Assembly: GCA_965261545.1 (NCBI GenBank)
Contig: CBDHDF010000010.1
Coordinates: 518,741-582,740, forward strand
Reading direction: 5' to 3'
DNA length: 64,000 bases
From: Bdellovibrionales bacterium
Lineage (GTDB): Bacteria; Bdellovibrionota; Bdellovibrionia; Bdellovibrionales; UBA1609
This document shows positions 57,563-61,839 of the stretch, piece by piece; the stretch's first letter is position 1; the number at the start of each line of letters is the position of its first letter. A program made the translations under genes and the position numbers. The notes beneath the pieces are model-generated. The model made no database searches. It was not told where the DNA came from and saw only the letters and a list, made by a program, of their open reading frames with translations.

Positions 57563-57710
57563 GATAGCTCCCCCGCCTTTTCTCATTTTTGAACTGTCAA
57601 CCCTAAATTGTTTAATGCAAGAATGTCGCCAAGTGAGAACCTCATTTATTTCAAAAGAAGGCATCATGAGTGTTTAGGAATTACACAAAAGACTTATATT
57701 TAAACAAATA

Positions 57711-57763
57711 TGTACCTTCATGGGGGCGCCTTGCTTCCCCACCCACGCCCATGAATGTTATGT
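57711..57763. repeat. REP-like hairpin element, copy A.
   Basis: Arms ttcatgggggcg (57716-57727) and cgcccatgaa (57745-57754) around the loop ccttgcttccccaccca. A 40-nt stretch is identical to 59073-59112. Confidence 0.75.
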
Positions 57764-58094
57764 ATTAAAATAGGATTTATTAATAAATCCAGTATTTTAG
57801 ACGAAAAAAATTCATAGGAACTATTTAGGGAGTACCGCATTAATTCGAGCAATAAAATTTGCATCCTCACCAAAATCTGTGGGTTAAAGGAGGCTCTCAA
57901 TCAAACAAATGGGCCTAGAATTTCTAGAAAAAATGCTTGGCTCTGGCTTTGCTAGGTTACATTTCTCTTTGCGTCAAATTTTGGACCATTCTGGAAAATT
58001 TCAGAAAATTTTGGTGAAAATAGCTACTTTTTCTTGCAAATAGATCACAATCTGTCAGCCTTACCTAGGATGTAAATTATACAAAGGAGCCACT

Positions 58095-58982
58095 ATCAAT
58101 CGTATCAATCGTTTATGGTTAGCTTTTGTTTTCTTCCTTTACTCTTTTGTCGTCACGGCATCTCCATCTAACTCAGATAAATACTATGGTCCTTTCTTGG
58201 GTCATTTGCTGTATTCTCCACATATGACAAGTGATGAAGTTAGGTCTCACCTCTACAACATACTCACAGGAACCCATGTGACTCACTCAGAGGGGGCTCC
58301 TGATATGATCTTTACATCTTGCACACCTGAAACATGCGAAATATGTACTGACAGACATTGTTATCGGCATATAACAAGAGATTATAGAATCACAAAAAGA
58401 ATTCTCTTTGATATTGATATCAATGAAGATGGCGAGGATTTTTTCTTTCGCAGCTTTTATTGCAAATATGATTTTCACTCTAAAGACCACCCCTCAGTGG
58501 CTCCGGGAAAAATTCCCAACTCCTTTAAATTAAATGTGGAACACCTATGGCCACAAAGCCATTTCTCAAAACAGCAATCTAAAAAAGAACAAAAAAATGA
58601 TCTCCATCACTTACAAATTGTCAATATGAGAGTGAACTCAACAAGAGGCAATAGAAGATATGGTGAAGTTAAGGAAGTTTCAAAACAAATATGTGAGGGT
58701 ACTTTTCTTGGAAAAGATCAATCTTCCGAAACTATCTTTCAGCCTCGTTTTGAAAATCGAGGAAATATTGCAAGGAGTCTTTTTTATTTTTCCATCAGAT
58801 ACCAAGTTGAGATCTCCCCGGAAGAGGAAAACTTTCTAAGGAAGTGGCATAGAGAAGATCCTGTGGATGCACAGGAGCGGGCACGCCATGAAATGATTGC
58901 CTTTTCACAAAAAAACCGAAATCCCTTTGTAGATTATCCACAACTAGAAGATAAGATCCTCAACTTTGGAAGCTCGAAATAA
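58095..58982 (+). CDS. Endonuclease I-family secreted nuclease, with a probable non-canonical ATC start.
   Basis: LNVEHLWPQS, NDLHHLQIVNMRVNSTRGN, NRNPFVDYP. An in-frame signal peptide (NRINRLWLAFVFFLYSFVVTAS) lies upstream of the first canonical start (TTG 58197). The SD aaggag (58084-58089) sits 5 nt before ATC 58095. Confidence 0.7.
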   Translation: MNRINRLWLAFVFFLYSFVVTASPSNSDKYYGPFLGHLLYSPHMTSDEVRSHLYNILTGTHVTHSEGAPDMIFTSCTPETCEICTDRHCYRHITRDYRITKRILFDIDINEDGEDFFFRSFYCKYDFHSKDHPSVAPGKIPNSFKLNVEHLWPQSHFSKQQSKKEQKNDLHHLQIVNMRVNSTRGNRRYGEVKEVSKQICEGTFLGKDQSSETIFQPRFENRGNIARSLFYFSIRYQVEISPEEENFLRKWHREDPVDAQERARHEMIAFSQKNRNPFVDYPQLEDKILNFGSSK

Positions 58983-59036
58983 AGCTGGTCTTTGATTTTT
59001 ACTTCTGACTCCTGCTTTGATAACATCTTCATATCC
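58966..59036 (-). pseudogene. 71-bp remnant of an IS110-family transposase gene, homologous to window positions 12-82.
   Basis: The reverse complement reads GYEDVIKAGVRSKNQRPALFRAS, against GYEDVIKAGVRSKNQRSALFRAS at the window start. The first 28 nt are identical (ggatatgaagatgttatcaaagcaggag). It overlaps the last codons of the nuclease gene in antisense. Confidence 0.75.
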
Positions 59037-59112
59037 GCGCCCCCATGAATGTTACAAACATTCATAGTAACATTCATGGGGGCGCCTTGCTTCCCCACCC
59101 ACGCCCATGAAT
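59037..59112. repeat. BIME-like cluster of REP-like arms, consisting of a perfect 19-bp inverted repeat plus hairpin copy B.
   Basis: gcgcccccatgaatgttac (59037-59055) and gtaacattcatgggggcgc (59067-59085) are separated by 11 nt. The second arm also forms hairpin B with cgcccatgaa (59102-59111). Confidence 0.75.
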
Positions 59113-59114
59113 CT

Positions 59115-59470
59115 TTCTAGGCCCCCACTTCTTTGCACGAAGCAACTCGGTGGACAGCTTCGCTGGTCTATATAATTGGCCTCTTTTAGTTACTCTGGAC
59201 TTTTGATGGTATTTTTGTCATGTATGATTCCGATACAATAAAGGATAAAGCAATAACATTATTGGAAGGTGATAAGATGAGTGGCCGTTGAATAGATTGG
59301 TAATTTTAATTCCGTGAAGTAACATGGTCTTGAGCTTTGGATCGAACCCACGCATGTACCTGCACTCTGAGTGTATGGACGTATAGTAAGTTGACCTATT
59401 TTCGCTTTAGAATTTATGGCAAAATCCCAAGGCTCTAGTTTTATCACCTTCTTTTTTTCTAACAGAAAGG
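59115..59470 (+). ncRNA. Candidate bridge (guide) RNA region of the IS110 element.
   Basis: A long non-coding left end lies directly upstream of the recombinase, as in IS110-group elements where the bridge RNA is encoded. No coding potential. Local stems are present, e.g. cgaagc..gcttcg at 59138-59162. Exact ends and loops were not determined. Confidence 0.35.
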
Positions 59471-59479
59471 AGGAGTCAT

Positions 59480-60682
59480 GTGGATATTATTTATAGTTCT
59501 GTTTGTGGAATAGATGTTCATCAACATATGTTGATGTGTACGATTGTCAAAGTGGAAGACGGTAAGAAGAAGTTTTTCACAAAAGAGTTCAAGAATTTTC
59601 CAAAAAATTTTCCTAGAATGCGCTCTTGGATGAAGCCACATAAGGTTGAGAGAGTTCTTTTTGAGAGCACAGGGATTTATTGGAATTCTTTATACGATGA
59701 TTTGACAGAAAAAGGTTATGAAGTAGATGTTATCAATGCCTTTCATGTCAAAAATATTACTGGTAAAAAAACTGACGTGTTGGATAGCCAGTGGATTGCA
59801 GAGCTTGGTGCTTGTGGTCTTCTAAGAGCTAGCTTCATTCCTCCACGTGAGATTCGTTCTATTAGACTTTTGGCTCGTTATCGTACAAAAACGATCCGCC
59901 AAATATCTTCGGAACAAAATCGTATGTATAAGGTTCTTGAATATTCAGGCATTCGTTTAACCTATGCAATGTCTAAAGCTGACTGCGTATCTGGTATGGC
60001 CATGATTCGTGCCATAGCTAATGGAGAGAGATCAGTTTCTAAATTGATGTCTCTTGCCAGAGGGTCTTTACGTCAAAAGACCGAAGAATTTTCTTACGCC
60101 CTGTCGGGAAAGATGACGGAAGAAAATCGTTTTGTTCTTCAACGCATTCTTGATCGAATAGATTTTTTGAAAAAAGAATGCTCTCAAATTGAAGAAGAAC
60201 TTTTCATTCGTATGAAACCCTATGAAAGGCAGTGGCATCTACTCCAGACTATACCTGGAATTGACGAATTAAGTGCAGCGCTTTTGATTGCAGAAATAGG
60301 AGGCAATGTGAAGTCTTTTAAAAATAAAGGAAATTTTTGCTCCTGGATGGGGATTTGCCCATCCAATAATGAGAGCGCAGGAAAAAAAAAGTCTTCACGA
60401 ACGAGGAAAGCGAACACATATGTGAAATCGTTGGTATGTGAGATGGCCAATAGTGCTATTAAGACGAATTCACAATTCAAAGGCAAATACCAATCACTTG
60501 TTATAAGGCGTGGGCACAAGAGATCAGTGATTGCCGTTGGTCACAAAATGATGGGAGTTGTTTATTCAGTCATAAGTAATGACACCCCCTACAAAGACCC
60601 TGGAATTGACTATGAAAAGCTCATGGTGAAAAAAAATGCACCAAGGTGGATTAGAGCGTTAAAAAAGTATGATTTCATGTAA
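59480..60682 (+). CDS. IS110-family DEDD recombinase/transposase.
   Basis: N-terminal VCGIDVHQHML (DEDD_Tnp_IS110). C-terminal LQTIPGIDELSAALLIAEIGGNVKSFKNKGNFCSWMGICPSNNESAGK (Transposase_20). The SD aaggaggag precedes GTG 59480. Confidence 0.9.
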   Translation: MDIIYSSVCGIDVHQHMLMCTIVKVEDGKKKFFTKEFKNFPKNFPRMRSWMKPHKVERVLFESTGIYWNSLYDDLTEKGYEVDVINAFHVKNITGKKTDVLDSQWIAELGACGLLRASFIPPREIRSIRLLARYRTKTIRQISSEQNRMYKVLEYSGIRLTYAMSKADCVSGMAMIRAIANGERSVSKLMSLARGSLRQKTEEFSYALSGKMTEENRFVLQRILDRIDFLKKECSQIEEELFIRMKPYERQWHLLQTIPGIDELSAALLIAEIGGNVKSFKNKGNFCSWMGICPSNNESAGKKKSSRTRKANTYVKSLVCEMANSAIKTNSQFKGKYQSLVIRRGHKRSVIAVGHKMMGVVYSVISNDTPYKDPGIDYEKLMVKKNAPRWIRALKKYDFM

Positions 60683-60774
60683 TGTAGGATGATTTAAAAA
60701 CTCGGACATTTGAAAAAATTCGAAGAACGGATAGTGGATTCGTGCGTCCAAACTACCCCGGAGATTCATAGTAA

Positions 60775-61839
60775 CTATTCATTATCGAGACCTTGATCAA
60801 TAATGGTCCAGTTTCGAGCGATGAGAGCATTTCGTGCATCCACAGCACTATTGTTGTACTGTGAATTTCCTCCATGAAACTCAACGTCATCTTGTTGAGA
60901 AGTACTGTGAATTTGGTTGAGCAGGTGGCTATACATATCTGTGGGAAGAGTGATGCCTTCAAGCATGCTTTCCATAGTTGTAACACTGTGAAAATTCCAT
61001 TGGGCCATATTGGGTTGTGCCACCTGGGCTTCTGAGAATATATTGCTCATGTCTGTGACCTTGGATGTATCCCAGCGACTGATATCAGGACTGGCAGCTC
61101 CTGTATCAGAAAACATATAACTCATATTTGTGACCTTGGATGTATCCCAGAGTCTTACGTCAGGATTGGCAGTTTCTGTGGAAGAAAACATATAACTCAT
61201 ATTTGTGACATTGGATGTGTCCCAGCGGCTTACGTCGGGATTGGCAGCACCTACATATGAAAACATATACCCCATGTCTGTGACTTTGGATGTATCCCAA
61301 TGACTGATCTCAGGACGGACCATTATGGCATTATAAAACATAGAGTTCATGCTTGTGACACTAGAGACGTTACCTCCGCTGAGGCTTTCTAAATTCCTAC
61401 AGCTACTAAAGGCTCTGTTTAAATTTTTCCAACCCACATCACCGAGATCTTTCACAGATATGAGTTTAATACTGTATTCGGGGGCAATGTCTTCAAAATT
61501 CCAAGCCTCAAGGGTTCCTGAAATGGTCACAGTGTAGTCTCCAGACTCTGCGTAGGTATGGGTGGTGTCACTGTCATCATGGGTTGTAATTTCGCTGAAT
61601 GAACCATCTCCCCAATTCACCTTGAAATTATAATTATATCCAGGGGGCAAAGGGAGAACGATAGCTTCGTTGTTGTTAGAAGTTCTCCAAATAGAGATAA
61701 AAGGAGGAGAGGTAGGACTACTGAAAGAGGATCCATATTGATCTTTTCCATCATTTCCACAGCCCAGAAAATTAATGCTGGTGAGACAAATGATAATTAA
61801 AGAAAAAGTCCATTTTTTAAAAAATTTTAATTGAATCAT
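60775..61839 (-). CDS. DUF285/BspA-like repeat surface lipoprotein.
   Basis: Lipobox NFLGCG. SIWRTSNNNEAIVLPLPPGYNYNFKVNWGDGS. Five WDTS(K/N)VT(D/N)M repeats. C-terminal ARNWTIIDQG. Closely related to 15319-16128. Confidence 0.75.
   Translation of the reverse strand: MIQLKFFKKWTFSLIIICLTSINFLGCGNDGKDQYGSSFSSPTSPPFISIWRTSNNNEAIVLPLPPGYNYNFKVNWGDGSFSEITTHDDSDTTHTYAESGDYTVTISGTLEAWNFEDIAPEYSIKLISVKDLGDVGWKNLNRAFSSCRNLESLSGGNVSSVTSMNSMFYNAIMVRPEISHWDTSKVTDMGYMFSYVGAANPDVSRWDTSNVTNMSYMFSSTETANPDVRLWDTSKVTNMSYMFSDTGAASPDISRWDTSKVTDMSNIFSEAQVAQPNMAQWNFHSVTTMESMLEGITLPTDMYSHLLNQIHSTSQQDDVEFHGGNSQYNNSAVDARNALIARNWTIIDQGLDNE

Follow-up and report, generated by a model that had tools for sequence, protein, structure and literature searches.

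A probable bridge-like guide RNA in the long left end of a multi-copy IS110-family insertion sequence from a Bdellovibrionales bacterium

What the long non-coding stretch ahead of a recombinase gene encodes, and which DNA it reads, is the question raised by an IS110-family insertion sequence (IS) in the genome of a Bdellovibrionales bacterium (assembly GCA_965261545.1). The element lies in a stretch of 64,000 nt (contig CBDHDF010000010.1, positions 518,741 to 582,740), which is called the window below and is numbered from its first letter. The initial annotation, made from the letters of the window, had placed an intact element at 59107-60775 within a palindromic repeat resembling a repetitive extragenic palindromic (REP) sequence, and had proposed that its 5' non-coding end encodes a bridge RNA like that of IS621 (Durrant et al. 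2024, PMC11208160; Hiraizumi et al. 2024, PMC11208158). According to the present analysis, a bridge (seek) RNA, about 190 nt long and located at 59259-59453, is very probably encoded in the 409-nt left end of this element, of which the genome contains about 25 near-identical full-length copies. The proposal of a bridge RNA is supported by a covariance-model match (E 5e-14) and by unpaired strands that match the flank and the end of the element, while the limits and the target of the element have to be redrawn.

Limits, ends and recombinase of the element

The genome (4.3 Mb, 41% G+C, 11 contigs) contains 25 full-length copies of at least 99.5% identity, plus many fragments, and all together the element accounts for 94 high-scoring segment pairs, 64 kb and 1.5% of the genome. 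The genomic copies were aligned together with their flanks, which gave the ends and the AA core. In the 37-38 ends lined up genome-wide, the conserved unit starts with (G)TAAC-ATTCATGGGGG (window 59067-59071 onward) and finishes with ...ATTCATAGTAA / ..GGAGATTCATAGTAA at 60774. The flanking sequence varies directly beyond GTAA^C and ..AGTAA^, where the caret marks the junction. The left junction reads ...G T AA ^ CATTCATGG and the right junction ...ATTCATAGT AA ^ C. The conserved unit is therefore 59071-60774 in this comparison, and not the interval given at first.

Two copies of the element lie inside other copies, at C10:1020948 (equivalent to window 59389, site cgtatagtaa^gttgacc) and at C7:264121 (equivalent to window 59961, site cattcgtt-taa-cctatg). 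Both bring the 40-nt hairpin along, and therefore the hairpin is the left terminus of the element and not a palindrome into which it was inserted. Target and element disagree in the base that follows TAA in the first of these self-insertions and in the base that precedes it in the second, which places strand exchange within TAA. In several relatives AA is preceded by C or A at the left junction and by T at the right end, which narrows the exchange to AA.

Other parts of the first description were present in the sequence with another meaning. The atgaat^ct motifs do occur as inverted copies (ATGAATCT/AGATTCAT), but they are internal sub-terminal repeats and no junctions; relatives have ATGAAAG and CTTTCA(C/T) at the same places. 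The 12-bp repeat attcatagtaac is found at 59060-59071 and 60764-60775, but it is no target duplication: the left copy belongs to a mini-element fragment next to the element, of which it forms the right-end-like terminus, and the right copy consists of the right end of the element itself and one base of its flank. The long upstream and short downstream non-coding stretches held up, with a right end of 92 nt against the left end of 409 nt.

The 400-aa product of the open reading frame matches PF01548 (DEDD_Tnp_IS110, 4.8e-23, residues 9-154) and PF02371 (Transposase_20, 4e-21, residues 253-338). When it was aligned to the solved IS621 recombinase structure, in which the chain numbering is shifted by 2, its residues D12, E62, D99, D102 and S299 fell on D11, E60, D102, D105 and S241 of IS621; the two proteins are about 20-25% identical (phmmer E 2.7e-15). 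The catalytic D, E, D, D and Ser are invariant or almost so across 18 homologues. Judged by these Pfam domains and aligned residues, the frame is an intact DEDD/IS110 recombinase gene, as had been noticed before. In addition, the element shows further traits of the IS110 family, namely the lack of classical terminal inverted repeats, an AA core as the sole duplication and site-specific insertion; its ends are CATTCATGG.. and ..TTCATAGT, with AA common to both. No named close IS was found in the plasmid collection, where the top match reached 41% and the named elements ISBth13, ISKpn2, IS1618 and IS5708 21-31%, and a search of genomes of the same class for relatives of the recombinase gave at most 35% identity.

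Conserved RNA structure and guide strands

The nearest proteins (65-80% identity; P0002-P0007) were found only in ENA/Logan metagenomes. Alignment-based scans of genome contigs found about 160 loci with 36-48% identical proteins, and a scan of genome contigs with the single protein found no relatives. The upstream regions of 58 relatives share sequence: their left ends read x^TAAC, followed by a hairpin, ATGAAAG and a structured region of about 180 nt. The terminal hairpin of these left ends is homologous to that of the present element, at a protein identity of about 40%. By blastn, the left end showed no primary-sequence similarity to the relatives' upstream regions, and similarity was seen only via a covariance model.

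RNAalifold on the raw MAFFT alignment gave only 15 pairs, so the structure was curated by hand; a seven-helix structure was fixed on 25 relatives (~40% protein identity) and then tested. Standard pairs occupy 89.7% of its cells, compared with 37-47% when the partners are slid by 1-3 columns, and 32 of the 52 pairs show double-sided changes among the 25 relatives; none of 500 shuffles reached the observed values. The covariance model R1 was then built from the upstream regions of these 25 relatives only, with the window excluded. It matches the left end over its full length (Table 1) and also about 75 of 100 relatives directly upstream of their recombinase genes, including clades outside the model. 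When the window sequence is threaded onto R1, the fold has -52.7 kcal/mol, within 1.7 kcal/mol of the minimum free energy (MFE) of -54.4. By homology and covariation, the predicted RNA consists of two modules within a closing helix, P1, 13 of whose 16 pairs are doubly changed in relatives. The hairpin P2a also covaries in relatives (GG/CC to AA/UU), with its bulged U kept. Thus the covariance-model and structure check yielded a conserved two-module structure. The threaded fold leaves 59289-59297, 59315-59323, 59341-59353 and 59383-59390 unpaired, which are the putative guide strands together with part of strand S1 of the second module. Within the second module, ACCCACGC of strand S1 repeats 59097-59104 of the terminal hairpin. 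The likeness of S1 to the 3' side of the hairpin is mostly conservation (permutation p ~0.04), and its family-wide support is weak.

A check of the loops against the flank and end sequences found matches to both. The right target guide reads UGAAUAG-A-UU, in which the terminal UU complements the AA core, with one bulged A between the two parts. Among relatives, the strand 5' of P2a has a mean longest match to core plus right flank of 3.81, against 3.12+-0.17 in permutations (0 of 500 reached it); matches of at least 6 nt occur at 5 loci where 0.7 are expected, and column signals fall at alignment positions 118-122. The left target guide reads ..AAG-U-AA-CAU, in which CAU reproduces the opening bases of the left end; GT precedes AA at 24 of 26 non-tandem left junctions. 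The same strand in relatives consists of a flank copy, then the core, then the first two left-end bases. In their left flank, positions -2, -3 and -4 agree with alignment columns 149, 148 and 147 at 0.97, 0.82 and 0.50, where 0.68, 0.39 and 0.24 are expected.

The motif gtATAGTAAg at 59381-59390 had been put forward as a possible target-guide segment. The 7-nt match ATAGTAA is indeed present (59383-59389 is the same as 60768-60774), and the motif does appear to be a guide, but what it matches is the element's own right end and not the target flank. Because the matched sequence belongs to the element, AUAGUAA is assigned as a donor guide. In 31 of 33 relatives its homologue repeats 7-9 nt of the right end, AA included, in the same sense, compared with 0.8% of permuted pairs, and Endozoicomonas copies outside the model set have the same left-donor match, CACGGCAA. 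In this way, three of the four expected guide segments are identified. With regard to the fourth, the module-1 strand gave no signal against the left-end start, and column covariation gave same-sense copies only. The sole complement of the left-end start is the hairpin's own 3' arm CCCAUGAAUCUU (12/14), an arm that precedes the conserved RNA and is perhaps not transcribed.

The left end exceeds those of relatives by about 150 nt, and a 65-nt module shared with an IS256-family element falls in this excess. In the IS256-family element, the module lies within a 600-nt non-coding part, antisense to the transposase gene. Two candidate -10 boxes are present, TACAAT at 59234-59239 and the TATAAT within the shared module.

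Table 1. Features of the IS110-family element and its surroundings in the window
Feature	Position	Strand	Description
Mobile unit	59071-60774	+	1,704 bp with one copy of the AA core; from flank comparison and two self-insertions
AA core copies	59069-59070 and 60773-60774	+	From junction comparison
Left-terminal hairpin, ~40 nt	59072-59112	+	Arms ATTCATGGGGGCG / CGCCCATGAAT, C-rich loop; right donor side of the element
Left sub-terminal inverted repeat, 8 bp	59107-59114	+	ATGAATCT; inverted copy of 60762-60769
65-nt module	59149-59213	+	~95% shared with ~52 copies of a 1.8-kb IS256-family element; TATAAT at 59171-59176
Predicted bridge-RNA-like scaffold	59259-59453	+	Full-length R1 match, model positions 1-182, 53.3 bits, E 5.2e-14
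P1 5' strand (predicted)	59265-59275	+	GAAGGUGAUAA; pairs with 59441-59451 (UUAUCACCUUC); encloses both guide modules
Right target guide strand (putative)	59289-59298	+	UGAAUAGAUU; UGAAUAG at 59289-59295 complements right flank CTATTCA
P2a hairpin (predicted)	59299-59313	+	GG(U)AA / UUCC; between the two target-guide strands
Left target guide strand (putative)	59314-59322	+	GUGAAGUAA; G-U-AA at 59319-59322, same sense as left flank G-T plus AA core
S1 strand, second module	59341-59357	+	AUCGAACCCACGCAUGU; homologous to near-invariant CUCGuACCCCGGAUUG of relatives
Left donor guide (putative)	59383-59389 (unpaired strand 59383-59390)	+	AUAGUAA; same sense as right end plus core, 60768-60774
Recombinase gene	59480-60682	+	400 aa; GTG start; AGGAGG 5-6 nt before the start
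Right end, 92 nt	60683-60774	+	Sub-terminal repeat AGATTCAT at 60762-60769; left-donor sequence ATTCATAGT plus AA
Right half of target, this copy	60775-60781	+	CTATTCA; overlaps the stop codon of the minus-strand DUF285 gene
Left neighbour	59037-59070	.	59037-59055 repeats the element's left-end start in inverted orientation; 59056-59070 is AAACATTCATAGTAA

Target sites and competing explanations

The preferred target is GTAA^CTATTCA. In the genome, CTATTCA follows only 36 of 25,461 GTAA sites, and 16 of the 36 GTAACTATTCA sites are occupied; it forms the right flank at 16 of about 25 non-tandem right junctions. The 37 right junctions comprise 15 that lead to CTATTCAGGG.., 10 that lead to another copy's left end and 12 that lead elsewhere; among the last, the copy in the window has the full CTATTCA and the others match 6, 5 or 4 of its 7 positions. 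A 1,715-bp element that encodes a 478-aa DDE_Tnp_IS66 protein (1.6e-49) has GTAACTATTCAGGGGGTG as its 18-bp terminal inverted repeat, so the IS preys mainly on IS66 ends. Both ends of the IS66-family element are used as targets, and 13 variant ends GTATCTATTCAGGG that lack the AA core are all empty. This IS66-family element, seen at C7:255000-257000, has a single open reading frame, and the IS110-type element occupies about 44% of the sites that carry the terminal 11-mer of this IS66-family element. Further variants share the terminal 16 bp but differ in their interiors (CAATGCCG.. and GTAT..GGGGGGCATGAG).

The other target is the left junction of a resident copy, which gives head-to-tail arrays; a count of exact joints found 12 tandem junctions, always right-end-AA-left-end. 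The natural target is thus GTAA^CTATTCA, chiefly in the IS66 terminal repeat or at a resident left junction, and a REP-like hairpin in this role was not supported. Since the motif matches the element's own right end, the hairpin is the left terminus and the target is GTAA^CTATTCA, the donor and the target in the proposed triplet of donor, target and guide had been mislabelled. The site of one of the two self-insertions, the ATAGTAA guide sequence of another copy, is closer to the left half of the donor than to the target. This recalls the 'half-match' events reported for IS621 (bioRxiv 10.64898/2026.08.31.748434). The tandem arrays could come from such half-match events, or from the resemblance of the left-end start CATTCAT to CTATTCA.

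By homology and guide matches, module 1 is the target-binding loop, with GTAA^CTATTCA as the specified site. By analogy with IS621, we infer that the RNA is produced, that the element forms a circle and how the reaction proceeds. The DEDD/Ser recombinase, loaded with the RNA, would recombine the abutted ends of the excised circle with the target at the shared AA. The circle joint would read ..CATAGT-AA-CATTCATGG.., with the joint sequence ..CATAGTAACATTCATGG.. / ..GATTCATAGTAACATTCATGGGG.., and the outcome would be no duplication beyond the core. Insertion beside the element's own left junction would produce head-to-tail arrays. In the assembled contigs of the four DNA runs, tandem copies give the same abutted-ends joint as a circle would.

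Several results weigh against a bridge RNA in the left end. A search of 58800-61000 against Rfam 15 (E<=1) returned only chance microRNA and poxvirus matches, and the whole left end, folded as a single sequence, has an MFE that does not surpass shuffles (z -0.47). No sigma-70-like promoter was recognised in the left end or across the tandem right-end/left-end junction, and a terminator scan of both found none on the + strand. Among public runs, where RNA runs were sought, none was listed, and the four DNA runs come from one study. The pairing of the right guide requires a 1-nt bulge, and the match of the left target guide is limited to G-T and the core, its preceding AAG being unlike the mostly T-rich flanks. 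For a right donor guide, k-mer, permutation and column-covariation searches of the window and the relatives found no strand complementary to the left-end start. In addition, the 400-aa frame is kept in only 8 of the 25 full-length copies, in which it is identical and open; its loss in the others may reflect assembly indels or decay.

The anatomy first proposed, an element at 59107/59113-60763/60775 in a pre-existing REP-like palindrome with gtATAGTAAg as target guide, drew some support from solo 51-bp palindromes with the same arms that occur without the IS, and from the REP-targeting IS110-family elements already known (IS621, ISPpu9/10 and ISPa11; PMC11208160, PMC11187229). However, all left ends have the hairpin irrespective of their flank, even those inside IS copies whose uninterrupted sequence has none, the palindrome (GTTAC) is never continued by the right flank, homologous hairpins occur in the left ends of relatives with ~40% protein identity, and ATAGTAA forms the right end of the conserved unit and so belongs to it. 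The self-insertions already refute this anatomy, and we give it next to no credence. A different reading accepts the structure but takes it for a cis-acting mRNA leader that serves translation or stability of the recombinase message, with the matches as by-products of terminal repeats. The 3' strand of P1 finishes about 15 nt before the Shine-Dalgarno sequence, which suits a leader, as does the lack of a separate promoter or terminator in the scans just described. We nevertheless consider a leader very unlikely, in view of guide strands that covary with DNA outside the RNA gene: with the right end (31 of 33 relatives) and with host flank positions -2 to -4. The right-guide strand, moreover, matches host or IS66 DNA outside the element, which a leader would have no reason to track. 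In IS621, too, the bridge RNA is cut from the left end or co-transcribed with it (PMC11208160).

The arrays and the site preference might also result from homologous recombination, amplification or long-read assembly artefacts instead of guided insertion. The copies often lie side by side and exceed 99.5% identity, the full-length ones differ by small indels typical of assembly error, and some IS66 flanks recur because IS66 elements are themselves repeats. On the other hand, the occupied IS66 ends have differing outer flanks and include both ends of the element, the copy in the window sits at CTATTCA in the stop codon of a unique gene, the 13 GTATCTATTCAGGG sites without the AA core are all empty, and the 12 array junctions always show the exact right-end-AA-left-end joint. 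Such an origin is therefore regarded as improbable. The reading that remains strongly favoured is an IS110-family element with a bridge (seek) RNA in its left end.

The copy in the window is flanked by an Endonuclease I gene (58197-58982, +) and a gene for a DUF285/PKD lipoprotein-like protein (60775-61839, -). The right junction abuts the DUF285 stop codon, so neither of these genes is disrupted. To the left of the element, 59037-59085 forms a perfect 19-bp inverted repeat (59037-59055 / 59067-59085) with an 11-nt spacer, in which an inverted left-end fragment faces the real left end, and weak spurious matches of the covariance model and of Rfam fall there. The adjoining AAACATTCATAGTAA is identical to the right end of a 117-bp mini-element. 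This mini-element of about 117 bp is found at window 57708-57830 and also at C6:3544, C3:20865, C2:289193(-), C2:233573(-) and C11:725851, where a full IS copy follows in tandem. It consists of the left-terminal hairpin of the IS, about 55 nt of AT-rich sequence and the right-end-like terminus AAACATTCATAGTAA, with flanks of the G-TAA-C type, and is probably a non-autonomous derivative moved in trans. Meanwhile, solo 51-bp perfect palindromes (GTAACATTCATGGGGGCG...CGCCCATGAATGTTAC) at C6:99927-99973 and C2:618571-618619 are bracketed by 8-bp direct repeats of host sequence (CAAATACA and AATGAGAC), which looks like a different, duplication-making mobility of the same hairpin. Copies of the IS are themselves interrupted by other elements. 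At C1:13225-16730, for example, an insertion of ~3.5 kb with the ends TCGCTGTCGCGAAAT../..ATTTCGCGACAGCGA and an apparently duplicated TA (IS630-like) divides the left end of a copy at CTTATCTAG, and further elements split other copies, e.g. at C10:1003934-1021313.

Relation to known IS110-type systems

An upstream bridge-RNA-like guide is an ordinary feature of the IS110 family, and the known mechanism is not overturned by this element. As in IS621, the recombinase combines DEDD and Ser parts with the same catalytic residues, the guide RNA lies in the long left end upstream of the gene, the bottom-strand guide copies the left side plus core while the top-strand guide complements the core plus right side, and a dinucleotide core at both ends is the only target duplication. 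In contrast to IS621, the core is AA instead of CT, and the top-strand guide comes first in the target loop (59289-59298 before 59314-59322), whereas the left target guide (LTG) of IS621, A50-U58, precedes its right target guide (RTG), G77-G80. One long helix here encloses both modules, and a terminal DNA hairpin of 40 nt and a sub-terminal inverted repeat of 8 bp are further differences. A 5' stem-loop and a right donor guide of the IS621 type were not recognised in the RNA of the window.

The order of the guides agrees with that of the IS1111-type seekRNAs (ISEc11, ISPa11 and ISKpn4; Siddiquee et al. 2024, PMC11187229), in which the top-strand match lies 5' of the bottom-strand match, the reverse of the IS110-type order. 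The short right extension (AGT + AA) and the structured or repeated DNA targets are also shared with IS1111, and the sub-terminal inverted repeats resemble those of IS1111 in part. The IS1111 repeats measure 7-17 bp and the present ones 8 bp; the right copy lies 3 nt plus the core from the end as in IS1111, whereas the left copy lies 36 nt in, compared with about 7. The RNA region is upstream of the recombinase gene here and downstream in IS1111, of which rare relatives with an upstream region, such as ISMtsp17, have been described (PMC11187229).

With regard to the target, IS1383 inserts in the inverted repeats of IS1384, and IS4321/IS5075 in those of the Tn21 family (Muller et al. 2001; Partridge & Hall 2003; as cited in PMC11208160). 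As far as these accounts go in that source, they resemble the present case in that an IS110-family element occupies a fixed position and orientation in the terminal inverted repeat of another transposable element. The present case differs from the cases cited there in that the victim belongs to the IS66 family and is cut 4 bp inside its terminal repeat, and the sequences are unrelated. A DNA hairpin beside the recombination site recalls the 'structure-gated' bridge recombinase of ISPpu10 (bioRxiv 10.64898/2026.03.19.712850), in which the hairpin is on the target side; here it is putatively on the donor side, at the left terminus. These comparisons might be taken together as a distinct third IS110-type architecture, with an upstream RNA gene in the IS1111-type guide order, one helix closing both loops and no right-donor guide in the RNA, the right donor being read instead via the terminal DNA hairpin and the sub-terminal repeat (a structure-gated donor). 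Such an element would be a hyper-parasite of IS66 ends that grows in tandem by donor-side 'half-match' events, of which the insertion into the ATAGTAA of another copy would be an example. We regard this proposal as speculative and rather unlikely as a whole.

The clade is widespread in metagenomes, and the scaffold is present in about 75 of the 100 relatives sampled. For genome annotation, the finding means that the 'REP/BIME-like' palindromes of this genome (BIME, bacterial interspersed mosaic element) are ends and mini-derivatives of this IS and not host REPs. Bridge and seek RNAs are a hot class of tools whose engineering is guided by natural diversity, and this locus supplies a multi-copy natural system with its limits and core, three guide segments and a natural target, the IS66 terminal repeat. 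About 25 non-tandem right junctions are available, including off-target and 'half-match'-like events. At the level of the family, the scaffold shows an IS1111-type guide order in an upstream RNA gene, together with a conserved terminal DNA hairpin.

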